DNA from: Candidatus Saccharimonadota bacterium
Lineage (GTDB): Bacteria; Patescibacteriota; Gracilibacteria; Absconditabacterales; Absconditicoccaceae
Length of the DNA stretch: 32,000 nucleotides
Assembly (NCBI GenBank): GCA_030429145.1
Contig: JAUIDC010000001.1
Coordinates: 60,001-92,000 of the forward strand
Direction: 5' to 3'
Part shown: positions 1 to 32,000 of the stretch, in pieces
Layout: each line of letters begins with the position of its first letter
Numbering within the stretch: position 1 is the stretch's first letter
The notes under the pieces: model-generated
Databases searched by the model: none
Seen by the model: the letters and a program-made list of their open reading frames with translations, nothing else
Told to the model about the DNA's origin: nothing
Position numbers and translations under genes: made by a program

Positions 1-45
1 ACAATGCGTATACCATACTCAACTTTTTCCGTAGTAAAATAAATA

Positions 46-615
46 TTATGAGAGAGAAGCTACTTCCTTATATCTAAAGCAGCTTACCAGATGATCATTG
101 ATCACACCTATCGCTTGAAGGTGTGCATAGACTGTGGTAGAGCCAAGAAACGCAAAACCTCTTTTTTTCATATCTTTTGCGATAGTGTCAGAGAGCTCAC
201 TCGTAGGTTTATAGTCCTCTATGGATTTCAATTTGTTATCTATAACGCTGCCAGCGGTAAATGACCAAATATACTGATCAAAAGAACCAAACTCTTTCTG
301 TACCGTAAGAAATGCTTGAGCATTTTTCACTGCAGCACGGACCTTTGCCTGATTACGGATGATTCATTCGTCTTGTAGCAACTCTTGTATTTTATCTTCA
401 TCAAACTGTGCCACCTTTTTTGCATCAAAACCAGCAAATGCTTTGCGATAGTTTTCACGACGACGTAAGATGGTCAGCCATGAGAGTCACGCCTGCATCG
501 TTTCAAGCAAAAGAAATTCAAAGTGTTTGCTTTCATCATGCATAGGCACTCCTCGCTCCTCATCATGATAGCGAATGTACTGTTCATCTTTCATACACCA
601 TGGACAGCGAATCAT
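46..615 (-). CDS. tag: DNA-3-methyladenine glycosylase I (Tag), 189 aa, 2 in-frame TGA read as Gly
   Basis: ORF 46..330 matches the C-terminal half of Tag (IWSF.., KKRGFAFLG.T.VYA.LQA.GVINDH). Reading through TGA at 364..366 and 487..489 adds the N-terminal half, starting MIRCPWC.. at 615. TGA 487..489 lies in the conserved QA[G]LSW motif. The gene ends in TAA. Confidence 0.9.
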
Positions 616-642
616 TTTGAAAATAATTATGTAAATAGACAA

Positions 643-670
643 TAAAAAAGAGAGGATCGCTCCCCTCTTT
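643..670 (-). terminator. rho-independent terminator after the DUF1761 gene
   Basis: A 7-bp stem (649..655 with 664..670) and an 8-nt loop. On the minus strand it is followed by a T-run (A-run 644..649 on plus). Confidence 0.55.
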
Positions 671-693
671 CATGGACATGATGTTGTATTTTT

Positions 694-1083
694 TTAAAGA
701 GAGATAAGCAATGCACCTGCAGCGAGTGCGCAGATAAGGCGGCAAATAGAGCTAATCCACATAACTGTATTGTTGCCATTAGCCCACATATTGTTGCTCC
801 AAGTAGTGATAAGAGAGAAACCAAGCCAAAGCACACCAGCGGTCATGAGAGCGTCATTCATCTCAGTCACACCTGCTTTCATAAATATCCAGTAGAGAGC
901 CCATACTGTGACAAGGTTGAAGATGAACTCGAGAACCATCATGAAGACCATGTTGTTCTTGTTGTTGTCACCGTGATGTCCTACTGCTTTCATATACATC
1001 TTACCAAAGAGCATAGGAGAGTACCAAAGCATTCCGATGATAAATGTAACCACCGCTGCTACAATTATTGCTGTATAGTTCAT
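694..1083 (-). CDS. DUF1761-like integral membrane protein, 129 aa
   Basis: Intact ORF with four hydrophobic segments. The N-terminal motif GMLWYSPMLFGKMYMKAVG resembles the DUF1761 family signature, recognised from memory. Confidence 0.6.
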   Translation of the reverse strand: MNYTAIIVAAVVTFIIGMLWYSPMLFGKMYMKAVGHHGDNNKNNMVFMMVLEFIFNLVTVWALYWIFMKAGVTEMNDALMTAGVLWLGFSLITTWSNNMWANGNNTVMWISSICRLICALAAGALLISL

Positions 1084-1303
1084 GAGATATGTTAGATAAA
1101 TAATAAAACATTTTTACTTTATCTACTGTGTCACATTTTCCCATTGTCTTTCTCCTTTATTACTGTTTGCTATATTTTATAGTAACCTTTGTACGTTCTG
1201 CAAGAGATTTTTTATCTCTGTCATTTATCGAAAAAATCTCCACTTTTGCAACTACTTCTTTGATTTCGTCAAATGTGTAAAGCATGAAAGTATGGTCTCT
1301 TAT

Positions 1304-1909
1304 TTACTGGCCTAAATCGCTTTTTACATATAATTCACCACAATTTATTCATCCATAGCACGTGTGCAAACATGAGGTATATCAACCGCCACAAGCTGTA
1401 TTCACCTGGCATCACCAAAATGTTCATCACGCATAATCAGTATACCAGTGATAGTCAGCGACTGCACATCTATCAGCATCTTTGGTATTTTCTAATCTAC
1501 TTATCAAACTAAATGTCAGCCCATTTTTGAAAACATTGTTGTACATGTACGTATATCATCATGTCACTACAACCATATTACTACCAGGAGCTACATTATT
1601 AACTGGATCTATTGGCAAGGAAGTCATGATGCCTGTTAGTTGAGGGAACCAGTTCGTTCCAGTTGCAGTATTGATGAGACAAGAACTATTGACAGAACAG
1701 CCCCCTGCTAAAGGATAAATACTCTGATCAGTCTTATAAATCTGTATTGCATTGTATAAAGAGGTCATATCCACTTTTCTTTTAGCATCTCTTGCTCTCT
1801 CTTGTACATCAGTGAGTCTTGGCACAAGGGCCGCCGCCAAAATACCGATAATCACAATGACTATCAGCATCTCTATCAACGTAAATGTTTTATTTTGTTT
1901 TATCACCAT
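1304..1909 (-). CDS. type IV pilin / pseudopilin-like protein (pilin 1), 201 aa, 7 in-frame TGA
   Basis: Class III signal and N-terminal helix MVIKQNKT/FTLIEMLIVIVIIGILAAALVPRL, with Glu at +5. The track ORF stops at TGA 1559..1561. With UGA=Gly the frame continues through a Cys- and Gly-rich tail (TGA at 1559, 1556, 1427, 1424, 1412, 1382, 1349) to TAA at 1304..1306. The upstream part of track ORF 1559..2065 overlaps the SIMPL gene and is rejected. Confidence 0.8.
1833..1885 (-). repeat. 53-nt stretch identical to 30266..30318 in inverted orientation (pilin N-terminal helix coding)
   Basis: Hand alignment shows tttacgttgatagagatgctgatagtcattgtgattatcggtattttggcggc on the minus strand here and on the plus strand at 30266..30318. 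Confidence 0.9.
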
Positions 1910-1911
1910 AG

Positions 1912-1940
1912 AAAAAAGAGAGAAATAACTTCCTCTCTTT
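1912..1940 (-). terminator. terminator-like hairpin between the SIMPL gene and the pilin 1 start
   Basis: The minus-strand transcript reads aaaagagag-gaagttattt-ctctctttt followed by ttct and then ATG. This is an AU-rich stem of about 9 bp plus a U-tract that ends 3 nt before the pilin 1 start codon. Its role (terminator or leader structure) is unclear. Confidence 0.4.
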
Positions 1941-1985
1941 TTATTATTTTTTAGATGATTTGCAATTACATTTATGCTATGGTGT

Positions 1986-2777
1986 CTAATCGATACTATA
2001 GATAACATTAACTGAGAGTGTAAACACCATCTGTCCTGGGGCGAGCTCTGCGCTTTCACCTCCACCGATACCCATAGCCATATCTGATCTCATAGCATTT
2101 GCATACATAGGCACTGGCTGGTAGTCCATCACTACGTCACTAATAGATGATACCTTACCAAGTTTTACACTAGCAAGATCTGCGAGCTGTTTTGCTTTTG
2201 CTTCAGCTTTCTCGTACGCCATCTCTCTTGCTTCTTGGTAGATCTCTTCTTTGTCATCGATATCGTATCTTGTAGAGTTGATCTGTGCTCCCTCTACCTG
2301 TGTTACGCTATCCATGATTTTTCCTGCATCTTCAAGGTTTCTTACAGTGATAGTCAATTGATGATTCGCGTCGTAACCATCCTGTCTTGATCTACCATCC
2401 TCGTAGTTGTAGTGAGGATACATAGAAATATTTGTTGTTTGGATATCTTTTTCGTCTACCCCTGCATCTTTGAGTGAGGTTCTAATATTTGCTATCTTTG
2501 TATTTGCCATCTGAAATGCCTCTCTTGTTGTTTTAGCAGTTTCTGTGACAGCAACATTGAAAATAAAGATGTCTGGAGTTGCATAGACTTTTCCTTCGCC
2601 ATTGACCGCGATGCTGTTTGTGACAAATGGTTGGTTACCAACATTGCTCGACTGTACTGGTCATTGTCTGTTCGTATCAGACACGATACCAGCAACTGAT
2701 ATGACTACAATAGCAAAGATAATAGAAAGAATCAGATTGTTCTTCCAGAGAGAACTTGATTGATTTGTTTCAGCCAT
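1986..2777 (-). CDS. SIMPL / DUF541 family secreted protein, 263 aa, 1 in-frame TGA
   Basis: ORF 1986..2510 matches SIMPL-domain proteins. Reading through TGA 2661..2663 adds an N-terminal TM/signal segment (MAETNQSSSLWKNNLILSIIFAIVVISVAG) and the typical IAVNGEGKVYATPDI start of the domain. The gene ends in TAG. Confidence 0.8.
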
Positions 2778-3022: not shown

Positions 3023-3868
3023 ATGGATAACAAAAAACAATCTTTCCGAGGGAAAGAAAACGAGATGTGGGCAAAAGTCCCCGTTTATATGAAAAAATAT
3101 TTTAGGGCTGAAATAAGTCACATCAGAAACTCGCTTATTAATTGGGTTTTAATATTTACCGTTGACTATGACACCTACAATAATCAAGCTCCTGACAAGA
3201 AGTGGAAATCACAAATTTGGATATGGAATACAAAAGAAAAAAGATGGAGAAGCAAAATCGTCATGAGCGATTTGTCTGAAGAATCTGTAGAGTATTATTT
3301 CATCCAGCATGAATATGAGAAAATAATACTCATATCTCGATTTGTTAGGGGCAATGCTATGATATACTCTTTTGATGGCACACATATAGGAGAGTTTCCA
3401 TTTAAGTATGAAGGTGGCAATCCCCTCCTGTGGAGGATGCTAGATGAGGATACTCTATTTATTGTAGATAATTCAACCTATAGTCAGTTTGAATACCACA
3501 TACCTACCAATACATTGATAGAGAGACTTTCACTCTATGGAGCCATTCCTGTTGACGAATTGGTAAAAATATACCATTTTGAAAAAGCAGATGTATTGGT
3601 GGTGAAGAGTTTGTTTCATGGCCATACAAAAATGTACGGAGTTACCGTTTGGAGCAAACATAAGGATCTCTCTGAGAAGCCAAACTACCGGAAAGCAAGT
3701 AAAATAAAAAACCATCTATCCGGGACACAAACAAATGGAACAGAAATGTGGCTACCTTATTGGCCATTTTTCGAAGGCATAGAAGTCTCTGCTGACGAAG
3801 AATACCTTTATATCACAGGAGTGAAACCCATACCGTGGGGAAGAATTCCAATACCGCCTTCGGTATAA
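3023..3868 (+). CDS. hypothetical protein, 281 aa, no recognisable domain
   Basis: Long intact ORF with no in-frame TGA. It has its own candidate promoter and a strong terminator. No TM segment and no motif I recognise. Confidence 0.55.
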   Translation: MDNKKQSFRGKENEMWAKVPVYMKKYFRAEISHIRNSLINWVLIFTVDYDTYNNQAPDKKWKSQIWIWNTKEKRWRSKIVMSDLSEESVEYYFIQHEYEKIILISRFVRGNAMIYSFDGTHIGEFPFKYEGGNPLLWRMLDEDTLFIVDNSTYSQFEYHIPTNTLIERLSLYGAIPVDELVKIYHFEKADVLVVKSLFHGHTKMYGVTVWSKHKDLSEKPNYRKASKIKNHLSGTQTNGTEMWLPYWPFFEGIEVSADEEYLYITGVKPIPWGRIPIPPSV

Positions 3869-3917: not shown

Positions 3918-3918
3918 C

Positions 3919-4350
3919 TTATATTTTAAAAGTCATAAGATATTGCTTTTCAGAAATTTGATTCACTTTGGCCAATCAGAAACCCTCATAGTAGTCTACC
4001 AAATGCGGTCCAGCACTAATAATTATCATCTTACCTCACCTGCTCTTTACATAGTCTATAACATGGTTTGTCAATTTTGTACCGATACCCTGTCCTTGTC
4101 TATTGGGATGTACATTCAGCCAAAATAGCTCATAGACATCATAATCTATTCGAGATAATGAGACACCAATCACTCAGATGATCTCTTTTTGCTCTTCTGC
4201 CACGAAATAGATCGGCTTCAAAGGGTTTTCCTCTAAGAACATAGCCGCCATCTCTTTTGTAGCTTGTTTTTCATCATCAACATCATAATTAAGACCTACG
4301 AGTGAGGCAGCTGATTCTACTTCGTGTGCTTGAAGCTCCCTAATCTGCAT
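3919..4350 (-). CDS. GNAT family N-acetyltransferase, 143 aa, 3 in-frame TGA
   Basis: Absent from the ORF track because TGA splits it at 4174..4176, 4036..4038 and 3976..3978. The reconstructed protein contains the acetyl-CoA binding motif LNVHPNRQGQGIGTKL. Start ATG at 4350 overlaps the upstream gene's stop by 11 nt. Ends in TAA. Confidence 0.75.
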
Positions 4351-4753
4351 TTTCTACATAGTTCTTAAAATTATCCAAAATCATCTGTCGACCTTGTTTT
4401 TGCATCTCCTCGGAATGCTGTGTTTCCGTCTCAAAGGTTTCCAGAATTTTTATGCTTTCTCCATCCTCTATAAATTTTACACTTACTCTTCTACTATCGT
4501 CCATCGTATACTCGATAATCTCTTTCCCATTCACATTAGTATACGTTCCTTCAAAATCAAAACCAGCACTCCCATCTTTTGCTTCCATTCTTGTCTTAAA
4601 TCTTCCATCTACGCGCAGATCATTTTCTGCTCTCGGTGAGTGCCAATCATCTGAGGCGTGATTTCGCTGTGTAATGTGTTCAGGATTCGTCCACGCTTCC
4701 CATACTTGGTCGATCGGAGCATTGATAGTTGTTGAAATGGTGATTGCAGTCAT
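4340..4753 (-). CDS. SRPBCC / AHSA1-like (START fold) protein, 137 aa
   Basis: Intact ORF. APIDQVWEAWTNPEHI..DDWH...DLRVGG-like pattern typical of Activator-of-Hsp90-ATPase-homolog-1-like proteins. Confidence 0.7.
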   Translation of the reverse strand: MTAITISTTINAPIDQVWEAWTNPEHITQRNHASDDWHSPRAENDLRVDGRFKTRMEAKDGSAGFDFEGTYTNVNGKEIIEYTMDDSRRVSVKFIEDGESIKILETFETETQHSEEMQKQGRQMILDNFKNYVENAD

Positions 4754-4806: not shown

Positions 4807-5265
4807 TTACTCAGCTTTCTCACTAAGTTCTTTTAATATCTGCAGTGATTTAGGCCATGCGTCTATCATATACTCTGCAAAGCTTTCATCGAGATCAATA
4901 TCTATTCCTATACTTGTAGACCCACCTTTCTCAGAAAAAGTATAATTTTCGTGTGCACCAACCCATGAAGCATTCTCTCCGATACGCACTTCTCCATTTA
5001 CAATCTCTGCTTCATGTCTCAGAGAGATAAATTCATATGGTTTATTCTCTTCCACCACGGCAAGCATTCCTCCTGTCTGTGTAGGATCTTTTGGATCTGG
5101 CCCGATAAAGCGAATCTCTGAATCTTTTGACCAATCACCTTCAAACCATGAACCTGCAGGATTAAATGGCGCCGTCCATTGCTTGTATGTTTCTTTATCC
5201 AGCATTGTATGCCATACCTTTTCTACTGGTGCATCGATATCGATTGAGAAAGAGTATTTCTTCAT
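4807..5265 (-). CDS. SRPBCC / AHSA1-like (START fold) protein, 152 aa
   Basis: Intact ORF. IDAPVEKVWHTMLDKETYKQWT.. has the same family pattern as the neighbouring gene, so this is a tandem paralog. Confidence 0.7.
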   Translation of the reverse strand: MKKYSFSIDIDAPVEKVWHTMLDKETYKQWTAPFNPAGSWFEGDWSKDSEIRFIGPDPKDPTQTGGMLAVVEENKPYEFISLRHEAEIVNGEVRIGENASWVGAHENYTFSEKGGSTSIGIDIDLDESFAEYMIDAWPKSLQILKELSEKAE

Positions 5266-5333: not shown

Positions 5334-6755
5334 TTACCCAACGCTACCCTCCATTTCCATTTCAACTAATCTATTCAGTTCTGCGGCATATTCAAGCGGT
5401 AGCTTTTTTACAATCGGACTAATAAAGCCATTTACAATCATAGCCATAGCTTTTTCTTCGTCGAGGCCGCGGGCCATCATATAGAAGAGTTGGGTGTCGT
5501 CTACTCTACCGGCACTGGCTTCGTGAGCGACTGTTGCATCGTCTGTTCAGACATGGATATGAGGGATGGTTGTACTGACTGATCTTTCGTCGAGAAGGAG
5601 CGCATCACATTCGGTTGCATTGACTGCTCATTCGGCAGTTGGCTTGATATCTACGATACCACGGTATGTTGAAATACCGCCATCTTTTGAGATGGATTTT
5701 GAGATGATCGTCGATGAGGTATTTTTACCGATATGAATAACCTTACTTCCAACGTCTTGAATTTGTTTTTCGTTTGCTACAGCTACGCCAATGTGATCTG
5801 CTTTTGCATAGTGTCCTTTGAGGATAGAACATGGATAGAGCATCGTCGTGCATGAACCAAGGTTTCCACCAATTCGTTCCATGTATGAGTGATCGTCGAC
5901 AAGCGAACGCTTTGTATTGAGGTTGTAGGTGTTGAGTGACCAGTTCTCGACTGATGAGTAACGCATGTGACTATTTTTACCGACATAGATCTCTACGCAA
6001 CCCGCATGGAGCGATTTGCTGTCGTATTTTGGAGCGCTACATCATTCAATATAGTCACCCGATGCATCGTCTTCGATGATGATAAGTGTATGCTCAAATT
6101 GACCTCCAGCAAGTGTGTTCATACGGAAGTATGCTTGAAGTGGCTCGCTCACTTTGACACCTTTTGGCACATAGATAAATGTTCCACCAGATCGGACGGC
6201 TCCGTGTAGTGCGGCGAATTTATGATCAGTATACGGTACAAGCTTCATGAAATATTTTTTGACGAGCTCTTCATGGTCAATGAGTGCTTTTGACATATCT
6301 TCAAAGATGACTCATTGCTCTGCCCACTTTTCTTTGATGTTATGGTAGACCACTTCGGCATCGTACTGTCCTCCTGCTCCAGCGAGATATTTTTTTTCTG
6401 CCTCTGGGATGCCGAGACGTTCAAATTTTTCTTTGATCTTTGGATCGACCTCATCCCATGATTTTGAATAGCCCTGAAATCCTTTCTCTGGACGAGCATA
6501 GTAGACAATCTCTTCTAGATTGAGCTCTGAAAGGTCTGGCCCCCATGAAGGCATCGGGATACTCAGAAAGTGCTCGAGTGATTTCAATCTATGCTCAAGC
6601 ATCCAGTCCGGTTCTTTGAGGTCCTTCGAAATTGCCCTCACATTTTCCTCCGAAAGCCCTTTCAGAAAGACCGCGTACGGTATCTGATCAAATGTTTCTA
6701 TAGTTGATTTAAGTGTTGTTTCTTGCATGTCGGGAGTATATGTATTTAACGACAT
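5334..6755 (-). CDS. sufB: Fe-S cluster assembly protein SufB, about 473 aa, 4 in-frame TGA
   Basis: Track fragments 5628..5966, 6042..6296 and 6312..6773 share one frame and all match SufB. TGA 6042..6044 is at YIE[G]CSAP and TGA 6312..6314 is at [G]VIF. Others are at 5628 and 5547. The C-terminus ..EMEGSVG then TAA is canonical. The start is either ATG 6755 (preceded by aaggtgg) or ATG 6773. Confidence 0.95.
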
Positions 6756-6789
6756 ATTGCCACCTTTTATCATGACAACTCAGTCATTT

Positions 6790-7251: not shown

Positions 7252-7590
7252 CTAATCTTTTGTCCCAAACAACATATTAATTAATGCCAAGACGATGGCA
7301 AAGATCGCTGTGGCAAGGAATCAACCAGTCTCAAATCCATCAACCATACCATCTACAAGCATAATCATCAACACCGTGATGATAAATGAAACAAGCCCCA
7401 AAGTGAGGATATTGAGAGGAAGAGTGAGCAAACGTAGTATCGTACCAATTATACCGTTCACTAGTGCAAGCACTACTGCCACCACTATGGCAGTCCAGTA
7501 TGAATCAACAGTGACACCCGGTACGAGATACGCAGCTATCGCAATAGCCAATGCACCGACGAGAATTCTAAGCACTATTCTCATGATCAT
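7252..7590 (-). CDS. small 4-TM membrane protein of the phage-holin-4_2 / YvlD-like type, 112 aa, 1 in-frame TGA
   Basis: ORF 7321..7590 is hydrophobic throughout. Reading through TGA 7321..7323 adds a further TM segment and ends at TAG 7252..7254. Size and topology resemble PF04020 proteins, assigned from memory. Confidence 0.6.
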
Positions 7591-7651: not shown

Positions 7652-7972
7652 TTATTCATCTTTCCTCCACCCGTACTGTTTCATATTCACTATATCATTA
7701 ACAATAGGGATATCTTCTCTTTCGAGCAGGACTTTATGTCTGAGTCCTCTTTCTCCAAGTTTCATCGTAGGAAGATATCACTGTTTATTGATAACACGTC
7801 GCCATGGGTAACGAACCTGCTCCTCTGCCGTCATCCCACTCAATATTTTTCATACCATCCATCAAGAGGTTTTTATACCATATCCACTATCAAGAAGCTC
7901 TGCCACATGCCCATAGGTTGTCACGCGTCAGTATGGTATATCAGTGATGATTTCCATGATTTCTGCTTTCAT
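7652..7972 (-). CDS. alkyltransferase-like protein (ATL; MGMT-family DNA-binding domain without the active-site Cys), 106 aa, 4 in-frame TGA
   Basis: Absent from the track because of TGA at 7928, 7862, 7850 and 7778. Checked codon by codon: ..IPY[G]RVTTYGHVAELL...YPWRRVINKQ[G]YL.., with PWRRV where methyltransferases have PCHRV. Ends in TAA. An alternative start is at 8008. Confidence 0.8.
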
Positions 7973-8147: not shown

Positions 8148-9992
8148 TTACTTCTTTCTTATTTTCTTCTTCTGATCCCACTCCTTACTCATCTGTTTCT
8201 TCCTATACGCATTGGCAAATCTATGCGCCTCATCGCGGAGCTGGGTTAGTAGTCTGTCTGCATCATCGTAGCAAAGTTCTTTTTCTACGATACGGAACTC
8301 ATCACTGAACATGTAGACTTTTTCTTTTGCTCATTTGTGTTTTGCTGTCCTTGCTCTTGCCTCTCATTTGCCAAGAGCACAAAATTGTACCTTTTCATAG
8401 ATATCACGAAACTCCTCAGAAGACTGATAGAGCGACTTTACGACACCAAGCTGTCCTTTTCCTCCATCAAGGATAAACACATCTGGCAAGATGCTATCAT
8501 CACATTTTTCACCGAGGCGGAATCTTCTCATCAATACCTCTGCAAGCGACGAGTAGTCGTCTGACTGTGTAAATAACGTATCGTTTTCTACGCTTTCGAT
8601 AATTTCGATCAGTTTCTTTTTCTTATCAGTTTTCGTCAATCACTTTACCTTATATTTTCTGTAGCCCTTCTTATTGGGAAGTCACTCTTTCATGGAACTA
8701 AGTCCTCCACTCACCCATCATCCCGAGAGATGTGAGATATCAAGACACTCTATCGTGTATGGAAATTTTTTTCGTTCGTATCTTTCATGTAATGTTTTGA
8801 GTAGTTCATTCATGAGATTGTCCTTCTCAAAGGCACTGGTCAACACATACGCATCGATACTTCTTTCGAGGAGTGCGATAGTTTCTTTCAAAGCATCTTT
8901 GAGAATACGCTTGTCAGTATCTATGCCGACCAATGCAGTTCACTCTTTCACCTGCTCTTCACAGCTGAGAATGTCTTCACAGGCAAGCAGTTTTTCTTCC
9001 TCTCGGAAGTGCCAGTTCATAGTACCAAATTCACGTTCAAACGTCTTTGCCAATGAGGAAATGTCACCATCATTTTGATGCTGTTTATAACGAATAATAT
9101 CAATAATTTTTCCCTCATAAAGTTTTACCATACAACAGACTCGCCATTCACCGATCATTTTTATCTCCACGATATTTCACGTCACCGGACGTGACAACAC
9201 AACGTTTTGCTTTTCGGTGAGCTGACCGACTTTTCAGTACATATCCCTGATCTGTGCTGCGTATTCGAAGTGCTGTTTCTTGACCGCCTCGTTGAGGCGT
9301 TCCATAATATACTCTTCAAGTAACTTCGTTCTTCCTGAGAAAAAGTCGGTCAGCAACGCTATGATCTTCTTATATTGTTTCTTCGACTCCTCATAGTCAT
9401 ACTTAGGCTCAAAGCCCATTCTTTTTGCCTCATCAACATATTTCTGTGCGTTATCTTGAGACAACTTATTATACACACACCAGCCTTCACAGATCCCGAA
9501 GAAATAATCAGAGCATAACTGTCACTGATGAAACTGTGTTTTCTTGCACCCTCTATACTGAAAGAGTTGACGAAAGAAATGCAACATCTCACGAAGTGCC
9601 CTCGTATTGTTTTTAGGACCAATATAGAGAGCTCCATCATTTTGGCGAAATCTCGTCAGAAAGATTTGTGGATACTGCTCTCCTGTCACTTTGATATATG
9701 CGTAACTATTGTCCGCCTTTAAAAGACTATTGTATGGTGGTGTATGTTTTTTGATCAGATTATCTTCGAGAAATAAGGCCTCGCTCTCTGTCGTTACAAT
9801 ATGAAACTCTACTTTCTCTGCATTTTGCAACATATCTTGTTTCCACACAGACCCTTTCTGAAAATACTGCGCTAGTCTATTTTTCAGATTTTTTGCTTTT
9901 CCGATATACAAAATTTTATCACGGCCATCTGAAAAAATATACACGCCGGGCTTCGTAGGAATATTCGTCAAATCTGATAAACGCATTGCCAT
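8148..9992 (-). CDS. uvrC: excinuclease ABC subunit C (UvrC), 614 aa, 9 in-frame TGA
   Basis: Five track fragments (9522..9992, 9234..9476, 8940..9170, 8718..8933, 8364..8639) share one frame. The protein has the GIY-YIG N-terminus (GVYIF.D....LYIGKAKNLKNRL), a UVR-like segment (FEYAAQIRD), DISHLSG[G]W and LRDEAHRFA motifs. Ends at TAA 8148..8150, only about 25 residues after DEAHRFA. Confidence 0.95.
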
Positions 9993-21178: not shown

Positions 21179-21207
21179 ACTTAGATCAGAATCAGTTTTC
21201 AATAAAC

Positions 21208-21235: not shown

Positions 21236-21256
21236 ATCAAATATAGTACAATAGTT

Positions 21257-21571: not shown

Positions 21572-21577
21572 AATGGT

Positions 21578-21856: not shown

Positions 21857-21935
21857 ATGTGATATTTTGTTGTTATTTATTCAATGTATTATAATTCTTA
21901 TATTCTATAAGTCAATATTTTGTCTTTTACCTCAT

Positions 21936-22847
21936 TTATGTAACAACTACAAACAATACTAATACGATTAGTGCTAGTATCATAAGCAAAATCTGTCTTC
22001 TAGAAAGCTTATCATTGAGAAATATTCGGCAAAGCACTGCCGCAGTGATGATAGAAAAGAGTTTCACAAAATTAATAAGATTTGCTGGGTTTGTATCATA
22101 TGCATAGTAGTGAAGCGATCCTGCTGTAGCACCACACAGCCCTATCGTTGCAAACACCATAGCCTCACGTCTCGTTATGTTTCTTTTTAGGCCACTCCAT
22201 GATCATCTGTCACCAGTGAAATACCAGAGCAATCCAATGATCAATGTACATATCTCGACCAGTACAACTACCTGTAGTGGCTCAATATGTCCTCCCTTGA
22301 TAAGATAGTTGTTTCCTGTGACAAAGTACGCACTACAAAGTGATGCTCAAAGTGCGTAGAGCGTATCTGCATTGATAAAATGCGTATGCTTAATGTCTTT
22401 GTCACTACGATGGATAATAAATTGCATGAGTACGAGGAAAAATACTACTGCTATAGCTATCTTCAGAGGACTCAATGCCTCCACTCCAGGGAAAAGCCAC
22501 ACATTGACGAAGTACATGAGGAACACATTGACACTCATGATGATAAGAACTACTCATCCGTGCATGTGTTTATATGCCTTGAAGATGAGTGTCATAGCCA
22601 CATATCATGCGATACAGATTGTTGCAAAAAGAAGCCACTGCATCACTCACATAGATGGAAAGAAAGCTGACTTGGTGGTATACATCCATACAGAAACGAA
22701 AAGCAGTCACCATAGTGCCGCGAAGCCAAACTGATAGACCAATGCCAAAAATCTGTCATCATAGTGCATACTTTCTTTCTTCTGCAATGTGACTGACAGT
22801 CCAGAAATGATGGTTGCGATACAGGCGCCAATTATTCCCCAGTTCAT
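21936..22847 (-). CDS. DMT-superfamily (EamA-like) transporter, 303 aa, 6 in-frame TGA
   Basis: Track ORFs 22347..22538 and 21936..22160 share one frame with ATG 22847. The rebuilt protein is hydrophobic throughout, with about 10 TM segments, consistent with two EamA-like halves. Ends in TAA. Confidence 0.65.
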
Positions 22848-22965: not shown

Positions 22966-23754
22966 TTACATGGCAACATACCCACCGTCGATACTCACAA
23001 GAGAGCCTGTCATAAACCCAGGCTTATCAGAAAGGAGAAACACAACAGTCTCTGCAACCTCTTCTGGTGTTCCTAGTCTTTCTAAGGGCTGTGCTTTTTC
23101 GAGGAAAGCAACTCCCTTTTCCATATCGCCACCAAAATTTTCTTCTGCAAATCCTTTCATGGCGCCTCTTGCTAGTGGGGTATCTATGGTCCCTGGACAG
23201 ACACAATTCACACGAATATTATCTTTTGCATAGTCTATGGCTGTACTTTTTGTCAGCTGTCATACTGCTCCTTTCGCAGCACCATATGCTGAAGACTTAC
23301 CTTTACCAATAAGGCATTGATCTGACCCCATGATAACAATGCTTCATTTCCCATTTTTCTGAAGGTGAGGTATTCCATATTTCAGTGTTAAAAAGACTCC
23401 TTCTACGTCTACTGCAAACATTTTTCTTCGATCTTCAAGCGAAGTATCAACAATTGTTCCTACTTTATGAATGCCCGCATTAGCAAAAATACTATCAAGC
23501 TTTCCAAACTGTTTCACACACTCCTCTATCTGTTCTTTCAACTTTCCCTCATCGGTCACATCTCACTCTAAAAACAACAAATCATCTATATTATATCATG
23601 CTTTAACCGCCTCTCACCCTACTTTATCTGCTTCCTCTTTCTTTCTTCACGTAAAGCATACTTTTGCTCCCTCACGGAGCGCAGCAAGCACTGTTGCCTT
23701 CCCTATACCACTGGTACCACCAGTAATAAAAACTACTTTATCCTGCAATAACAT
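22966..23754 (-). CDS. short-chain dehydrogenase/reductase (SDR, FabG-like), 262 aa, several in-frame TGA
   Basis: The rebuilt N-terminus is MLLQDKVVFITGGTSGIGKA, the Rossmann TGxxxGIG motif. Track ORFs 23344..23559 and 22966..23211 share this frame. The C-terminus has the typical LG.PEEVA..V.FL.SD.....TG....DGG pattern. Ends in TAA. Confidence 0.9.
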
Positions 23755-23778: not shown

Positions 23779-24258
23779 TTATATTTTCTCTTCATAATTA
23801 TCGGATAGATAACGAAACCAAGGACTTGTCTTAGGCACTATCACCTCATCAATATAATATCACTTTTCAAATCCTCACTCCTTTTTTCTCTTTTTAGTTT
23901 GCATCTCCTGCAAGATTCTACGATCTATACTCTTTGCCTTAATAATCTCATTTACTGACATCTGATGATTCATATTGTGGAGAATTTCATCTATATCATA
24001 AGAAGTATCGCTATCCCCTTGTGCTGCCATTCGTGCTTCCACTACCTCTTTCAGATCTGCAAGCTCTGCAATGATCTCTTCTTGTGTCTTATTGATCACC
24101 TTTTCAAGTTCATCAAGCTCCTCCACTGCCTTTGTTGCCAAGGCTTGAAGAAGTTCCTCTCCGACCAACATGGTAGGGTCTACCTTGCAACCCTCGCTTT
24201 TCATCAGATCGGGAATTTTATCTCTCACCAACTTATTGAAGACGAATGTTTTCGGCAT
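23779..24258 (-). CDS. MazG-like nucleotide pyrophosphohydrolase family protein, 159 aa, 2 in-frame TGA
   Basis: KLVRDKIPDLM.. and EELDE......EIIAELADLKEVV fit the all-alpha NTP pyrophosphohydrolase pattern. The frame reads through TGA 23875..23877 and 23860..23862 to TAA 23779..23781. Confidence 0.6.
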
Positions 24259-24318: not shown

Positions 24319-25743
24319 CTATACACCAAGTTTCTCTTGTAGCTTCTCTTTCACTATATCTCCCCTTGCTTTACCACCCAAAGCTTTCATAACACCTCCT
24401 ACAAGTACATTAATCTTTCACTCATCACCATTTTTTACTTGTTCAACAATGTCAGCATTTTCCTCTATCACTTGAGCAATAGTCTCTTCCAACAATCACA
24501 TATCTATCTTTTCCTCTACGAAAACAGTTTTCACATCTACCTTTTTCTCTTTCATAAACTGCTGCATAGCCTTCTTCAAAAGTCATCCTGAAAAATCTCA
24601 TTTTTTATAATATGATAATATTTCGCCCAGTGGGGCGATATTCTCTTCAGTATAGTCGTCCTCCTGGAAGTAGTTAAGGAGCGTCTTTGTAGTCAGCCCA
24701 AGATCGTCTACCTCTTTATTGAGAGAAAATAGTATATGTGCTTTGTGTGGATCTGCTGAGAAAAACTTTGCATCCTTTGGATGAATACCAGCTTTGATGA
24801 TAGGATCTTCGATCTGGAACGGTAGTGTGTCAGTATTGATTTTTAGCTCTTTTGCCAGATGACTAATGTCGATAGCTGGGATGTCTGGCTCTTTGATATA
24901 CCTGTAGTCCTGGGCGTTTTCTTTGTTTCTCATCACTTTGATTTGCTTCTCTTTTACATCCCAAAGAGCTGTAACCTGCTCCTGCTTCGGCTCATTGTGT
25001 TCTTCCCAGTATGAAAGCTGTGCGTCAAGCTCTACACTCAGTGCGTCTTTTGCAAATTTGAACGAATTGATGTTCTTCACTTCTGTTCTTGGATTGAGAT
25101 CATTTGTTCCTTTCTTTCTGAGAGAGAGACTGAGATCGGATCTGATGTGTCCCTTCTCCATGTCTGCATCAGACACATGGAGAGCTCTGACTGTTTTTTG
25201 CAGATATTCGAAATAGATGCTCATATCATCGATACTGCGGATAGACGGTGTCGTAACGATCTCTACGAGTGCTCTTCCAGATCTATTGAAGTCGAGAAGA
25301 CTATGATCTCCCTCATGAAGGAATTTTCCCGTGTCCTCTTCGAGGTGAATATGATCAATTTGCACGGTAAATGTGCTACCGTCGAGTCTGTAGCAGGTCA
25401 ACTCTCCTCATACGACGATAGGATTTTCCAACTGCGTGATCTGGTAGCCTTTCGGCAGGTCCGGGTACTCATAGTGTTTTCTATCCCAATCGATAATAGG
25501 CGTTATCTGGCCGTGGATAGCTACTCATAGCTCGACCGTCTTTTTGATAGCCTCTTGATTTGGGCGAGGCAGGATGCCGAGCTGGCCAGTACAGAGCGGA
25601 CAGATATAGATATTTGGCTGATCGGTGTCTTCATTTTTACAAGCACAAAACATCTTGCTCTTTGTATTGAGCTCTACGTGCGTTTCGAGACCGATGACGA
25701 CCTCTAAACCTAACTGTTCCAATCTTTCTTCCAACGTAGCCAT
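24319..25743 (-). CDS. gatB: Asp/Glu-tRNA amidotransferase subunit B (GatB), 474 aa, multiple in-frame TGA
   Basis: Likely start is [25 protein letters not shown] at 25743. Track ORFs 25525..25899 and 24598..25401 share its frame. The C-terminal extension through TGA 24598, 24583, 24496 and 24418 gives the GatB tail ..[13 protein letters not shown].. and ends at TAG 24319..24321. Confidence 0.95.
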
Positions 25744-25799: not shown

Positions 25800-27206
25800 C
25801 TACGAGTTCATCATCTCTTCGATACGTTTTCCTATTTGGATAAGATCCATATCTGTCCCATAATCCCCAGTGATTTGCATACCTGTCGGCAAGTTTCATG
25901 GAATCGTGAGGGTCGGTAGTTTCCCGAGACTGAAGCCTACTGTATAGACGTCGGACATATACATTGTGACTGGATCGTCCATCACCTGTCCTATCTTTGG
26001 TACTTTATTTGGCGTGACTGGCGAGATGATAATATCGACCTTCGCAAAATCCTCCGTAAATTTTTGGATAAGTTGATTTCTCGCGATGAGTGCCTTTTGA
26101 TAATATTTGTCCAAAAATCCTTGTGACAGCACCTGATTTCCCACAACAATCCTTCTTTGTGTCTCAGAAGAAAATCATTTACCTCTTGATTCGAGATAGA
26201 GAGAGACAAGGTCGTTTCACTCTACTCTATGACCATATTTGATACCGTCGATGCGCGAAAGGTTTGAGGAAGTCTCTGCCATCGTGATCGTATAGTATGT
26301 TGCGACAAGAAGCTCATCATCAAAAAATGGTAGTTCTACAAGCTCTGCTCACTTCTGTCTCAAGAGATCAAACATAGTGGTGAATGCTTGTTTAATGTCT
26401 GCATCAAGTGCTTTACTTTCAAAAAATGACTTATAATATCAGATTTTGAGCGATTTTTTTTCGGTAGCTGCTGAAATTCTCTTCTCCTCATAAGCGAGTG
26501 TTGCCAGATCATGACTATCCTTCCCTGCTATGGTCTGCAAGATAACTTCTAAATCCTCTGGACTATTGGCAATCGGCCCGATCGTATCCAGCGACGATGC
26601 ATAAGCCATACAGCCGTATCTAGAAACCATACCGTAGGATACTTTGTGTCAGTACACCTTGTTGTACCCTGCAGGCTGTCTGATCGAACCACCTGTGTCC
26701 TCACCAAGTGAAAATACTGTTACACCGGCTGCAACATTTGCAGCGCTTCCACCGCTTGAGCCTCCAGCAACAAGCGTTTGATCCACAGCATTTTTCGTAG
26801 CACCATGCATCGTATTTTCTGTTGAACTTCCATGTCAGAAGGCGTCACAGTTTTCTTTCACGATAAGTATCGCGCCTGCTTCCTGTAGTCTTTCTATAGC
26901 TGTAGCCGTATATGGAGAGATATAATCTTCCAATATCTGTGCGGCCCCAGTTGCCACTGTTCCCTCTACGAGAAATGTATCTTTCGCGCCAAAAGGAATC
27001 CCCTCGAGAAGTCCAATTTCTTCTTTTCTTTGTAACTTCTGATCAACCTCTCTTGCCTGCTCTAACGCTTGCTCCTTAAATATACGGACATTCGCATTGA
27101 GCTCATTTTTCTCAGCAAACGATATTCTTTCTGCGACCAAACTCTCACAAGTATATTTTCTTGCAATAAGATCGTCGTGTATCTGCTGTATAGTAAGATG
27201 TGTCAT
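25800..27206 (-). CDS. gatA: Asp/Glu-tRNA amidotransferase subunit A (GatA), 468 aa, multiple in-frame TGA
   Basis: Track ORFs 26835..27206, 26439..26630 and 25896..26144 share one frame and match the amidase-signature protein GatA. The frame reads through TGA 25896..25898 to ..[11 protein letters not shown].. and TAG 25800..25802. Confidence 0.95.
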
Positions 27207-27225: not shown

Positions 27226-27465
27226 TTAGACCACTTTTGGCACTTTTAAATAATCTCCCACTCTTTGTGGAAAATTCTCTCTAATGGCAGCAATATTCTC
27301 AAAATCTTCTATCTTATCCTCCCTAAGCTCTGAGAAATCCAACGTACGTCTCTCTATCTTCATGTCTTCCTTTCCTATCGCATTGTCCAATACATTAAAA
27401 AAATCTAGGATAGCACTATCCTCTTTCGCATTCTTAATCTTTGCTAACTGTTCGAGTGAAAACAT
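27226..27465 (-). CDS. gatC: Asp/Glu-tRNA amidotransferase subunit C (GatC), 79 aa
   Basis: Intact ORF directly upstream of gatA, with LREDK..........NFP.....Y.KVPKVV at the C-terminus. Confidence 0.8.
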   Translation of the reverse strand: MFSLEQLAKIKNAKEDSAILDFFNVLDNAIGKEDMKIERRTLDFSELREDKIEDFENIAAIRENFPQRVGDYLKVPKVV

Positions 27466-28774: not shown

Positions 28775-29113
28775 ATGGAAGAAAATATGATTTTTGTTTT
28801 TTGGTTGGCCTTGATTATTCTCTTTTTCGTTGCGGGACGAAAAATCTATGCTAAGGCTGGAAAACCTGGACGAGCAAGCATTATCCCTATCTATAATGCG
28901 TACACATGGATGCAAATTGCAGGAAGAAAATGACGAGAATTTCTTCTCCTTCTAGTACCTATCTACAATATCTATTTGACGTTTGTCATCAACATTGCTA
29001 TCGCAAAAAAGTTCTGAAAAAGCACAGCATTTGGTATAGGATTAGTATTCTTATCACCGATATTCATCCTTATTCTTGCTTTTGGAAAAGCATCGTATAA
29101 CCCATCTGCTTAG
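28775..29113 (+). CDS. DUF5684-like small membrane protein, 112 aa, 2 in-frame TGA
   Basis: Absent from the track as a single ORF. The rebuilt protein reads ..KIYAKAGKPGRASIIPIYNAYTWMQIAGRK[G]REFLLLLVPIYNIY...AKKF[G]KSTAFGIGLVFL... This matches the KAGKPGWA.LIPIYN / FGKS pattern of DUF5684, recognised from memory. Ends in TAG. Confidence 0.7.
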
Positions 29114-29159: not shown

Positions 29160-29171
29160 CTCACTTTCTGC

Positions 29172-30143
29172 ATGAAAAAAGGTATTCTCTTTGTCTGTTC
29201 CCTCCTTCTATGAGGGTTGAACATCCTACCAGTGTTTGCACAAGACACGATAGAGATGATGGATCCACCAGCATTGACCGACTACGTAACAGACTTTTCA
29301 AATGTACTAGATAGCGATACACTCAATGCTCTCAATAGTCGTGCCGCTCTCTATGAGCAAGAACATGGGCCACAAATTGTCACTGTGCTTTTCCCTCATC
29401 GTCAAGGATATGATCTTTTTAGCATAGCACTTAATATCTTCAATAGTAATGGTATTGGAAGTGCAGAAAAAAATGACGGGCTATTGTTGGTGATAGCTAC
29501 TGAAGAGAAAAAGATCCGTATCATGGTAGGATATGGCCTCGAGTCACAGATACCTGACCTACTCGCGAGTGATATCATAGAAAAAGATGTGAGACCTCTT
29601 GTCAATCAGTGAGACTTTAGTGGAGCGGTAAAAGCATTTTATGATAGAGCGACAACAGCCATAGCTACCAATGAAGGAGCGCGTTTTCAAGAAAGAGATA
29701 GATCTATTTCATTGAGTGATACAGAGCTACTGATCAACATCATCTTGGCAATTATCGTCTTTGCTATTGACGCTGCTTATGCAAGAAAAGCAAAAAAATT
29801 AGCAAAGATCAGGAAAGAAAACAAGGAGAAAAACAAAGACCAAAAGATAAAAAAACTTGTACCACGGCCAGTCATTCTCCTCTTTGTTTTTCATACCAGT
29901 GTGATATTTTGATTTATCATGCCCATATGAGGCAGCTACATAGGTTCCTATCTCTTCGGACCAGCGGCCGCAGCATGGATAGGCATCATCGTTTTTGCCA
30001 GATGGATTGGCGTCGGAGGTAGCAGGCGCTGATGATCATCAAGCAGTAGTTCGGGATGACGATCAAGTTCAAGCTCCTCAAGCAGTAGCAGCAGTTTTTC
30101 ATGATGAGGTGGTTCTTCAGGTGGTGGATGAGCTGGAGATTAG
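29172..30143 (+). CDS. TPM-domain (YgcG / TLP18.3-like) membrane protein, 323 aa, 10 in-frame TGA
   Basis: The signal peptide MKKGILFVCSLLL[G]GLNILPVFA is joined to track ORF 29217..29612, which carries the TPM pattern VTDFSNVL....L......YE.......V.V......G......A...F...GIG....NDGLLLV.......IRI.VGYGLE. The frame continues through TGA 29610, 29910 and 29928 into TM segments and a Gly/Ser tail. Ends at TAG 30141..30143. Confidence 0.85.
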
Positions 30144-30180
30144 ATACAAAATATATTTTGTATACAACATTTCGTTGTAT
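30144..30180 (+). promoter_or_regulatory. operator-like array of ATACAA/TTGTAT half-sites (a 20-nt perfect palindrome plus an adjacent 7-bp inverted repeat)
   Basis: 30144..30163 reads atacaaaata|tattttgtat, a perfect palindrome. 30162..30168 (atacaac) pairs with 30174..30180 (gttgtat). The array lies immediately after the TPM stop codon and overlaps the predicted -35 and spacer of the pilin 2 promoter. Confidence 0.45.
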
Positions 30181-30186
30181 TATAAT
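30158..30186 (+). promoter_or_regulatory. candidate sigma70-type promoter for pilin 2
   Basis: TTGTAT (30158..30163), a 17-nt spacer, then a perfect TATAAT (30181..30186), 55 nt upstream of ATG 30242. Confidence 0.5.
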
Positions 30187-30241
30187 AAGAAATCTATACG
30201 AATAGGTTGATATAAGGTTTAGTTGAGCTTCAAACACACAG

Positions 30242-30928
30242 ATGAAACAAAAAAGAGTATTTTCTTTTACGTTGATAGAGATGCTGATAGTCATTGTGAT
30301 TATCGGTATTTTGGCGGCTGCTCTCGTGCCGAGACTCGCGGACGTTCAGGGAAGAGCACGTAACGTGCAGAGAAAAGCAGATATCGCTACGCTTACCAAT
30401 GGGATAAAGATCTACTACTCTGACTATGGGAATTATCCAAGAGGACTCGGACATATGGTGACGGGAAACATTATGACGTCACTACCAAAAGACCCTCAGA
30501 TGTCTCAGAGACATCCTTGTTCTTGGTGGCCTGAAGGATGGTGAACTGGCGCACTTGCAGACTGATACTACTTCACTTCTGGATTTTACAATGACTCATA
30601 TAATTGTGGTAGTGCGATTGAAAATTGTAGCTCTGCACACTACTGATATCTCTATATTAGTTGTGCAGCCAATCCGACCAACTGTAAATTTGCAGGAGTC
30701 TGAGCTATGATGGAAAATGATGGCTCTATCAATTCATATGGCGGCACTGTGAGTACAGGCGCATATTATGCATGTAACCGAGGTAACAACTACGCAGAAC
30801 GATGACGATACACTCCTTATGGAAAATACTATGCTCGACAACTTGTCATGGGTGAAATGGCATGAGGATTAAACAGTAAGGGGAAACTATTTCTTCGTGT
30901 CTTTGTCAATGGAGATGTGAGGTATTAA
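30242..30928 (+). CDS. type IV pilin / pseudopilin-like protein (pilin 2), 228 aa, 6 in-frame TGA
   Basis: N-terminus MKQKRVFS/FTLIEMLIVIVIIGILAAALVPRL. The track ORF ends at TGA 30542..30544. A codon-by-codon read continues through TGA 30563, 30644, 30701, 30803 and 30863 to TAA 30926..30928, adding a Cys/Tyr/Gly-rich domain of 128 residues. Confidence 0.8.
30266..30318 (+). repeat. 53-nt stretch identical to the reverse complement of 1833..1885
   Basis: See the partner repeat at 1833..1885. It encodes FTLIEMLIVIVIIGILAA in both pilin paralogs. Confidence 0.9.
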
Positions 30929-30955
30929 AATATTTTACCGTACTGATATCATAAA

Positions 30956-31501
30956 ATGCCAAACATAATCCCTAACTATTTTCTCTCTACATTACAATCT
31001 CGCTTTGAAAAACACATGCATCGTCACAAAGGTATGGCGTGGAAGAAAGTGCAGGCGAAGTTAGAGACAAATAGTAAAAAGCTTGAGACTCTTTTTGCCA
31101 TGGAAGAGACTGGTGGAGAACCAGATGTTATTGGGTACGACAAAAAGAGTGATGAGTATATTTTTTGTGACTGCTCTGCTGAGAGTCCGAAAGGACGTAG
31201 GAGTCTTTGCTATGATGAAGCTGCTCTCAAGTCAAGAAAAGAACACAAGCCCAAAGACAGCGCTCTGAATATGGCAAAAAAAATGTGAATTGAGATCTTA
31301 GATGAAGAACAATACAGATACTTACAGGAACTCTGAGAGTTTGATCTGAAAACATCGAGTTGGATCAAAACCCCTGCTGAAATAAGAAAGCTTGGATGAG
31401 CAATTTTCTGTGATCGTCGTTATGACACAGTTTTCACCTATCACAACGGCGCAGAGTCTTACTATGCTTCTAGAGGATTTCGCGGCATAGTGAGAATATA
31501 G
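30956..31501 (+). CDS. DUF4256 family protein, 181 aa, 3 in-frame TGA
   Basis: ORF 30956..31288 continues through TGA 31286, 31334 and 31397. Motifs include ..GGEPDVIGYD....EYIFCDCSAESPKGRRSLCYD.., AKKM[G]IEIL, LQEL[G]EFDLKTSSW, IRKLG[G]AIFCDRRY and YHNGAESYYASRGFRG. Ends at TAG 31499..31501. Confidence 0.8.
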
Positions 31502-31531
31502 ATTGAAACAATTTACTTATGAGATAGCTCC

Positions 31532-31882
31532 ATGCAAAACACCAAAATCTTTACGATGCCATTTGCCAAAGTCTATCCGATGTATATCCAGAAGGCAGAA
31601 AAGAAAGGACGTACTAAAGACGAAGTCGATATCATTATTTGTTGGCTAACAGGATACACCAAGAAACAACTTGAGAAACAAATCAAACAACAAAATGATT
31701 TTCAAACTTTCTTTGCCGAAGCACCATCACTGAATCCAAATGTTTCAAAAATTACTGGCGTCATTTGTGGTTATCGCGTAGAGGATATACAAGATCCACT
31801 GATGCAAAAAATTCGTTATTTAGATAAGCTTATTGACGAGTTAGCTAAGTGAAAAGCGATGGAAAAAATTTTGAGAGAATAG
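31532..31882 (+). CDS. DUF2200 family protein, 116 aa, 1 in-frame TGA
   Basis: [35 protein letters not shown]...NP....[32 protein letters not shown][G]KAMEKILRE matches DUF2200, recognised from memory. TGA is at 31850..31852. Ends at TAG 31880..31882. Confidence 0.8.
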
Positions 31883-31898
31883 ATATGCTCCATTGATA

Positions 31899-32000
31899 CT
31901 ATCTATGTTTTCCCCACTCACGATGAATCAATGCCTCTAGCTCTTTAAAGTTTATTTTCAAAGCCCCAGAGGTCATGGTAAGTGGAGATCCACACATCTC
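31899..32000 (-). CDS. 3' end of an unidentified gene (partial; continues beyond the window)
   Basis: An open minus-strand frame runs from the window edge (..EMCGSPLTMTSGALKINFKELEALIHREWGKHR) to TAG 31899..31901. Only 33 codons are visible and there is no family assignment. Confidence 0.3.
   Translation of the reverse strand, partial: EMCGSPLTMTSGALKINFKELEALIHREWGKHR

Follow-up and report, generated by a model that had tools for sequence, protein, structure and literature searches.

A probable variant genetic code with glycine UGA and tryptophan CGA and CGG codons in a 32,000-base stretch of an Absconditabacteria (SR1) genome

Introduction

In the SR1 (Absconditabacteria) and Gracilibacteria lineages the codon UGA is translated as glycine. 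This code, NCBI translation table 25, goes back to Campbell et al. (2013) and Rinke et al. (2013), as cited in PMC8629427 and PMC4032931, and its glycine codon has been confirmed by proteomics in a bacterium of the BD1-5/Gracilibacteria group (PMC4032931). Defining features are a tRNA-Gly with the anticodon UCA (G1:C72, C2:G71, G3:C70 and U73) and the loss of release factor 2 (RF2, encoded by prfB). Codetta (Shulgina and Eddy 2021) additionally assigned CGA and CGG to tryptophan in Absconditabacteria (PMC8629427), and tRNA anticodon stems were studied in 2026 with this assignment as part of the working code of Absconditabacterales (PMC13092985). The tryptophan meaning of CGA and CGG is in no official translation table, and we found no report of experimental proof. 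Here we analyse which code applies to a 32,000-base stretch of DNA (contig JAUIDC010000001.1 of assembly GCA_030429145.1, positions 60,001 to 92,000; the whole stretch is called the window below).

We find that the window is very probably a piece of an Absconditabacteria (SR1) chromosome in which UGA specifies glycine, CGA and CGG specify tryptophan, and only UAA and UAG are stop codons. These are all three codon meanings of the Codetta code for Absconditabacteria, reproduced from independent alignments. With table 25 the window shares glycine UGA, UAA and UAG as the only stops, tryptophan UGG, the Absconditabacteria/SR1 lineage and a moderately low GC content (40%). It differs in CGA and CGG, which are kept as arginine in table 25 and behave as tryptophan here. 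An initial annotation of the window had named its code as genetic code 25; this was right for UGA and incomplete with regard to 44 CGA and CGG codons. The same annotation correctly pointed out that the UGA reassignment is not new. Since glycine UGA has been known since 2013 and tryptophan CGA/CGG was already predicted in 2021, we regard the sequence comparisons below as an independent confirmation of that computational prediction by single-gene alignments, and not as a discovery.

Gene structure of the window

The gene set rests on long reading frames that stay open across TGA and are absent under the standard code, and on Pfam searches run with each TGA replaced by X. When TAA and TAG alone count as stops, the window holds 37 genes, which comprise 9257 sense codons and cover 87% of its length (most of the genes are listed in Table 1). 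Inside these genes we counted 107 in-frame TGAs, spread over 25 genes, and not a single in-frame TAA or TAG. The initial annotation had estimated on the order of 100 sense TGAs and more than 20 genes interrupted by TGA only, and both estimates were borne out; all nine TGA positions that it quoted are in frame on the strand it gave. Pfam families were matched by 23 of the 25 TGA-bearing genes. As had been predicted, the fragments merge into full-length matches, with profiles such as Adenine_glyco, SUFBD_core, Amidase, IU_nuc_hydro, GatB_N, DUF4256 and DUF2200 running across the TGAs nearly end to end (match ranges in Table 1).

Under the standard code (translation table 11) the genes look fragmented, and the TGAs might be real stops in a decaying, pseudogene-filled genome, or assembly errors. 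Against this stands the contrast between 107 in-frame TGAs and the complete lack of in-frame TAA, in-frame TAG and frameshifts in the 37 genes, although all three stop triplets occur by the hundreds in the other two frames of the same genes (TGA 270 and 404, TAA 106 and 210, TAG 214 and 111). The affected genes include essential ones (pnp, gatCAB, fmt and uvrC), and the TGA positions are common to, or occupied by GGN in, 80 related genomes. Furthermore, an independent Logan assembly of run ERR3428547 contains a contig (L081, overlapping window positions 30289-32000) that is 100% identical over the 1712 bases compared. We consider pseudogenes or assembly errors under the standard code to be a practically negligible explanation. 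From the identity of L081 to the window it also follows that the window organism occurs in the sample of run ERR3428547.

All 37 genes end in TAA (21 genes) or TAG (16 genes), as the initial annotation had stated for the genes it rebuilt. This is partly a product of the rule by which open reading frames (ORFs) were built, in which only TAA and TAG counted as stops, but the gene ends are still informative because the ends of the family profiles coincide with those stops. They bear on the possibility that UGA has a dual meaning, glycine inside genes and a termination signal at certain gene ends or in certain contexts, which would be in line with the low-level alternative UGA readings found by proteomics in a Gracilibacteria relative (PMC4032931). 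In the window, none of the 37 genes shows an end of homology at a TGA; each is terminated by TAA or TAG, at the point where family profiles run out. DUF4256 stops exactly at the last position of its profile (173/173), and in DUF2200, where the TGA is residue 107, the profile runs on to residue 115, about nine residues further. A dual meaning of UGA therein seems very improbable to us.

The visibility of the genes under table 11 was scored against the list of table-11 ORFs of 60 amino acids or more. All 25 TGA-bearing genes are split or hidden: the genes for GNAT, the alkyltransferase-like protein (ATL) and DUF5684 are wholly invisible, those for EamA and pilinB are less than 50% visible, and the remaining ones are split. 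The initial annotation had counted nine genes as entirely or largely invisible, which overstates the three invisible and two mostly invisible genes found here.

UGA in comparison with standard-code homologues

TGA was left masked in the alignments with standard-code homologues to keep the query from influencing the outcome. Of the 36 TGA columns that could be compared, 21 had Gly as their most frequent residue (P of 21 or more at the 7.5% Gly background, ~4×10−15). UvrC and PrmC are only partly covered in PDB, and most of their TGA columns are without a standard-code comparison. Four of the seven TGA columns of GatA are Gly in 109/109 homologues; the other three have a majority of Ala, Asn or Gln. 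Three of the four columns of SufB carried Gly in 119/123, 131/168 and 49/116 sequences from a set of 150 diverse representatives, the fourth being variable, and E. coli SufB agrees with the assignments at the TGA columns and at the CGA columns treated below. For DUF4256 the values were 114/119, 111/119 and 118/119. With the 74 homologues of DUF5684, Gly was found in 72/74 at TGA 29015 and was the commonest residue (18/74) at TGA 28931.

Solved structures gave a similar picture. Both TGA columns of Tag are Gly in 3/3 solved Tag proteins, the four columns of ATL are Gly, Ala, Gly and Gly in 2/2 solved ATLs, and the column of TGA 31850 in DUF2200 is Gly in S. pneumoniae SP1917 (PDB 3c9p). The inosine-uridine nucleoside hydrolase has two TGAs, one (21047) at a position that is Gly in the solved homologues and one (20330) at a position that is Phe or Val there and GGA in a relative. 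In the short-chain dehydrogenase (SDR), TGA 23344 aligns with Gly in 3/4 solved SDRs, and the residues at its remaining five TGA columns vary. The two TGA columns of UvrC that align with T. maritima UvrC have Gly (8682) and Lys (8718), and among the three aligned columns of Fmt one (17433) is Ala in three solved Fmt proteins and two are variable. Nine sites had initially been described as invariant or near-invariant Gly. That description fits seven of them (Tag 487, SufB 6042 and 6312, PNPase 13617 and 14829, DUF4256 31397 and DUF2200 31850); UvrC 8718 and Fmt 17433 do not fit, as they are GGN or TGA within the lineage only.

At columns that are at least 80% Gly in GatA, SufB and DUF5684, the window uses GGN 46 times and TGA six times. 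Overall, UGA makes up ~15% of the Gly codons (11.6 per 1000 codons), and the Gly content of the predicted proteins is 6.3% without and 7.5% with TGA.

UGA in related genomes

As relatives we took the best 80 PNPase loci from one scan of GTDB species genomes and aligned their orthologues codon by codon. The 80 loci come from Absconditabacterales/SR1 genomes, including RAAC1_SR1_1 and oral taxon HOT-345, and their PNPases are up to 79% identical to that of the window, in agreement with the lineage that the initial annotation had proposed. Many of the metagenome-assembled genomes among them (L001, L003, L004 and others; PNPase 55-79% identical, Gly columns with TGA) bear the title 'uncultured Candidatus Peribacteria bacterium', which looks like a systematic taxonomic mislabel.

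In 259 columns at least one sequence had TGA. The other residues in these columns were Gly in 52% (7.5-fold enriched), Cys in 0.3% and Trp in 0.1% of cases. When columns were called conserved if their unambiguous codons agreed at 60% or more, 602 of 696 TGA occurrences (86%) fell on Gly columns. Two of the TGAs of PNPase illustrate the exchange with GGN: at 13617 the 80 relatives have GGN 72 times and TGA eight times, and at 14829, in the GXXG motif of the KH domain, GGN 61 times and TGA 17 times. The third (14967) is mostly Asp in the relatives. In UvrC, TGA or GGN is found in relatives at six of the nine TGA sites.

A different sense reading of UGA, as tryptophan, is known from table 4 (Mycoplasma/Spiroplasma and some endosymbionts). 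It has the same ORF structure as the window, as table 4 yields exactly the same ORFs as table 25, and the entries for GatA (P0001) and DUF4256 (P0345) in a public protein catalogue carry Trp at every TGA. However, Trp was the commonest residue at 0/36 TGA columns of the standard-code homologues and, as given above, a very rare partner of TGA within the lineage. GatA is a clear case: its homologues contain on average 0.3 Trp per protein, the window gene has no TGG, and seven Trp residues would be gained under table 4. The Trp content of the window proteins as a whole would reach 2.2%. In addition, the table-4 lineages are unrelated to that of the window, and one relative (L009) has a normal tRNA-Trp with the anticodon CCA and not UCA. 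Tryptophan UGA is, in our judgement, hardly credible.

Recoding of UGA as selenocysteine was also tried as a candidate and rejected. It shares with the window that UGA is read through inside genes. It is confined to few genes, affects catalytic sites aligned with Cys and needs a selenocysteine insertion sequence (SECIS) element, unlike the 107 sites in 25 genes found here, where Cys makes up 0.3% of the aligned residues. Rfam families were not detected in the window at gathering scores, and no search was aimed at SECIS elements.

Taken together, the alignments confirm the predicted role of UGA as a glycine sense codon in this organism, with UAA and UAG as its sole stops.

CGA and CGG as tryptophan codons

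Alignments with PDB sequences revealed several positions at which a window arginine was opposite tryptophan, for example 'YHDEE[R]GVP' versus 'YHDNEWGVP' in Tag, 'ME[R]IGG' versus 'MSWTQS' in SufB and 'YL[R]P' versus 'NPWP' in Fmt. The window contains 37 CGA and seven CGG codons, which together would be 44 of its 142 Trp codons if read as tryptophan. As in the Codetta code, CGG is rare (7.6 per 10,000 codons) and Arg is mostly AGA. CGA, at 40 per 10,000 (9257 codons, one window), is slightly more frequent than the value of <37 per 10,000 in aligned Pfam domains given in the Codetta paper.

CGA and CGG were masked before the comparison with standard-code homologues. Trp had the majority at nine of the 16 columns compared (P ~1×10−13) and Arg at none. 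The three CGA columns of DUF5684 are Trp in 71/74, 74/74 and 61/74 homologues, those of SufB in 113/138 (the rest mostly Phe) and 130/135. Solved homologues have Trp at the columns of CGA 4664 and 4388 of AHSA1 (3/3), CGA 553 of Tag (3/3, in 'EWG') and CGA 23428 of SDR (3/4), and E. coli Fmt has Trp at that of CGA 18114. Two further sites are occupied by other aromatic residues or His in solved structures, PrmC 11670 by Phe (T. maritima HemK) and ATL 7799 by Phe or His; in relatives the CGA and CGG sites of PrmC are TGG, CGA or CGG, and ATL 7799 is TGG in 2/2.

Codon choice at conserved positions separates the two amino acids. Where GatA, SufB and DUF5684 have columns with at least 80% Trp, the window uses CGA five times and TGG three times. 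At the 13 columns of the same genes with at least 80% Arg it uses AGA seven times, CGT three times, CGC twice and AGG once, and CGA or CGG never. Arginine is written as AGA, AGG, CGU and CGC.

The relatives show the same separation. The main partners of CGA and CGG in the aligned codons are Trp, Phe and Tyr, those of CGT, CGC, AGA and AGG are Arg and Lys, and the commonest partners of TGG are CGA and CGG. On conserved columns CGA coincided with Trp in 91/115 and CGG in 11/15 cases. All five cases with Arg as the partner derive from one Gracilibacteria locus, L077, which fits the published distribution of the change, general in Absconditabacteria and patchy in Gracilibacteria, part of which keeps CGA and CGG as arginine according to the Codetta paper. 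At CGA 13104 of PNPase, 46 relatives have CGA and 23 have TGG. Comparative evidence of either kind is available for 22 of the 44 CGA and CGG codons, and none of the 22 points to Arg.

Table 25 could still be complete as it stands. CGA and CGG would then remain Arg codons, and the apparent Arg-for-Trp exchanges would be real substitutions or result from ambiguous decoding. NCBI annotates the lineage with table 25, the CGA and CGG reassignment has never been experimentally confirmed (PMC8629427), and a tRNA(UCG) of one relative is Arg-like (see below). The alignments argue against this. At least nine CGA codons occupy columns that are 75-100% Trp in standard-code homologues, 0/13 strongly conserved Arg columns use CGA or CGG, and among close relatives the two codons swap with TGG and otherwise pair with Phe, Tyr and Leu, not with Lys or Arg. 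An exchange of Trp for Arg is one of the changes that proteins tolerate least, which makes nine such independent events at near-invariant positions implausible. We regard a complete table 25 as improbable and favour the reading in which CGA and CGG behave as tryptophan codons in the window, as far as can be judged from the alignments.

tRNA genes and points against the proposed code

From the literature on the lineage (PMC8629427), UGA would be read by a tRNA-Gly with the anticodon UCA in a cell that lacks RF2, and CGA and CGG would be read by Trp-charged tRNA(UCG) and tRNA(CCG). Neither the window nor the flanks of the 80 related loci yielded a tRNA(UCA) with ARAGORN. The GGQ motif of release factors was absent from 9771 ORFs in the relatives' flanks (1.34 Mb), a result that is uninformative either way. 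The sequence read from the organism itself covers ~45 kb, against a genome size of at least 936 kb.

Several observations weigh against the proposed code or fail to add to it. No tRNA gene is present in the window (searched with ARAGORN), nor in the Logan contigs L081 and L082, which are 100% identical to the window and extend it to the right by ~9.5 kb and to the left by ~4 kb. Fifteen of the 36 compared TGA columns and seven of the 16 compared CGA/CGG columns are variable positions that neither support nor contradict the proposed meanings, and 22 of the 44 CGA and CGG codons lie in genes without a usable homologue. Finally, the tRNAs with UCG or CCG anticodons that we came across by chance in the flanks of the relatives are mixed in identity, whereas the Codetta paper describes tRNAs of the clade with Trp identity (G73, no A20).

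The tRNA of L009 (696-851) is Trp-like: it has G1-U72, G73 and U20, is located 10 nt from the tRNA-Trp(CCA) gene and has a nearly identical T-arm. In L031, one of the two closest relatives, the tRNA(UCG) at 8916-8990 is Arg-like, with A73 and with an A in or close to position 20. The CGA and CGG codons of L031 itself sit on Trp columns despite this Arg-like tRNA. The tRNA(CCG) of L001 (tRNAs at 19151-19224 and 19537-19608) has U73 and a Gly-like acceptor stem. It prompted us to consider CGG as a glycine codon, which was rejected, as Gly is not among the seven commonest partners in CGG columns. One of the UCG/CCG tRNAs of the relatives has a pyrimidine at position 37.

Only in the mixed identity of these tRNAs might there be something new. 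The CGA and CGG tRNAs of this three-change code may, in this sub-lineage, lack the canonical Trp identity set, which would imply either an altered recognition rule of the tryptophanyl- or arginyl-tRNA synthetase or an ambiguous Arg/Trp decoding in transition. We consider this extension of the proposed code unlikely, if worth bearing in mind.

Consequences for annotation

The choice of code affects each protein prediction in this region. Of the 37 genes, table 11 leaves 25 hidden or split. Table 4 introduces 107 wrong Trp residues, many of them at invariant catalytic or structural Gly positions. The official table 25 introduces 44 wrong Arg residues, including some at near-invariant Trp positions of Tag, SufB, SDR, AHSA1 and DUF5684. 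Homology searches, structure prediction and the family profiles of the whole lineage inherit such translation errors.

Examples of such errors are already in circulation. The catalogue entries P0001 and P0345 derive from the same NCBI contig as the window, and as they have Trp at every TGA (seven sites in GatA, three in DUF4256), they were translated with table 4 instead of table 25. The wrong residues are mostly at near-invariant Gly positions (4/7 in GatA, 3/3 in DUF4256); neither gene has CGA or CGG. The same replacement of Gly by Trp is seen in catalogue entries from other members of the lineage (P0002-P0011), and other window genes that do contain CGA or CGG are presumably also wrong there. 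Gene calling on the Logan contig L082 of run ERR3428547, at the left end of the window, used the standard code and reduced Tag to a fragment of 42 amino acids. The window is of value chiefly for the quality of annotation and as a set of testable sites at which proteomics could confirm the CGA/CGG change.

Other features of the window

Table 1. Genes of the window with their TGA, CGA and CGG codons and supporting matches (in-frame codon positions in brackets)
Gene or product	Position	Strand	Recoded codons and support
Tag, DNA-3-methyladenine glycosylase I	46..615	-	2 TGA (487, 364), 1 CGA (553); Pfam Adenine_glyco 1-176/177
DUF1761 membrane protein	694..1083	-	no TGA; Pfam; exact protein on Logan contig L082
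Type IV pilin-like protein	1304..1909	-	7 TGA; Pfam N_methyl motif
SIMPL/DUF541 protein	1986..2777	-	1 TGA (2661) in variable N-terminal part; Pfam SIMPL 1-205/205
Hypothetical protein	3023..3868	+	no TGA, 2 CGA, 1 CGG; without family match
GNAT acetyltransferase	3919..4350	-	3 TGA, 1 CGA; Pfam Acetyltransf_1; 0% covered by table-11 ORFs
AHSA1/SRPBCC protein	4340..4753	-	2 CGA (4664, 4388)
Second AHSA1/SRPBCC protein	4807..5265	-	no recoded codon; Pfam
SufB	5334..6773	-	4 TGA (6312, 6042, 5628, 5547), 2 CGA (6192, 5874); Pfam SUFBD_core 2-232/232
Holin-IV-like membrane protein	7252..7590	-	1 TGA (7321), GGA at that codon in a relative; Pfam Phage_holin_4_2 1-105/105
Alkyltransferase-like (ATL) DNA-binding protein	7652..7972	-	4 TGA, 1 CGA (7799); Pfam DNA_binding_1; invisible under table 11
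UvrC	8148..9992	-	9 TGA, 3 CGA; Pfam GIY-YIG, UVR, UvrC_RNaseH
PrmC, release-factor glutamine methyltransferase	11004..11912	+	2 TGA, 2 CGA, 2 CGG; Pfam PrmC_N, MTS
SLT-domain transglycosylase	11893..12753	-	3 TGA; Pfam SLT
PNPase	13056..15197	+	3 TGA (13617, 14829, 14967), 2 CGA (13104, 15045); 80 orthologues
Hypothetical membrane protein	15458..16072	-	2 TGA; relatives with GGN or TGA at both
GreA	16087..16560	-	no recoded codon; Pfam
YidD-Fmt fusion ORF	17139..18323	+	6 TGA, 2 CGA, 1 CGG; Pfam YidD, Formyl_trans_N, Formyl_trans_C in one frame
LRR/SLH surface protein	18363..20030	-	9 TGA, 3 CGA, 1 CGG; Pfam LRR_4, SLH
Inosine-uridine nucleoside hydrolase	20192..21178	+	2 TGA (20330, 21047); Pfam IU_nuc_hydro 1-296/297
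EamA-family transporter	21936..22847	-	6 TGA, 1 CGA; Pfam EamA; <50% visible under table 11
Short-chain dehydrogenase (SDR)	22966..23754	-	6 TGA, 1 CGA (23428); Pfam adh_short_C2
Hypothetical protein	23779..24258	-	2 TGA, 1 CGA; without family match
GatB	24319..25743	-	6 TGA; Pfam GatB_N 1-273/277 and GatB_Yqey, both across TGAs
GatA	25800..27206	-	7 TGA, no TGG; Pfam Amidase 14-444/445
GatC	27226..27465	-	no recoded codon; weak Pfam GatC match, gatCAB gene order
DUF5684 membrane protein	28787..29113	+	2 TGA (28931, 29015), 3 CGA (28838, 28871, 28934); invisible under table 11
TPM-domain protein, Gly/Ser-rich tail	29172..30143	+	10 TGA (6 in C-terminal Gly/Ser run), 1 CGA, 1 CGG; Pfam TPM_phosphatase 1-123/125
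Second type IV pilin-like protein	30242..30928	+	6 TGA, 4 CGA; Pfam N_methyl
DUF4256 protein	30956..31501	+	3 TGA (31286, 31334, 31397); Pfam 2-173/173
DUF2200 protein	31532..31882	+	1 TGA (31850); Pfam 1-111/111

The reading frame passes from YidD (membrane-protein insertion efficiency factor) to Fmt (methionyl-tRNA formyltransferase) without a TAA or TAG in between, and only ~3 residues separate the Pfam matches. The same arrangement was found in five relatives (L001, L003, L004, L006 and L017), and YidD-Fmt therefore appears to be a conserved fusion protein of the lineage.

Both pilin-like genes have the N-terminal methylation motif and are unusually rich in recoded codons, with TGA-TGA doublets included. 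Type IV pili are presumed to serve in the attachment of this lineage to its hosts (PMC8080830).

DUF4256 shares 73-76% identity with its counterparts in Bacteroidota, Acidobacteriota and Bacillus, which is about as close as the PNPase of the window is to its nearest relative. The best matches of GatA after its own lineage are from Flavobacteriia (51-54%). These similarities may reflect horizontal acquisition followed by GGA-to-TGA changes.

The sufB gene has no adjoining sufC or sufD; the two ORFs that neighbour it upstream (6840-7013 and 7040-7222) are small, carry a high charge and lack a family match. A region of ~750 bases (21179-21935) contains only two unsupported ORFs on the minus strand (~105 amino acids each) and has no Pfam or Rfam match. 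On the plus strand at 27645-28649 lies a hypothetical lipoprotein-like gene without TGA, which has an internal tandem duplication ('TQGDILSVQRY' followed by 'TQGDILSVQHY').

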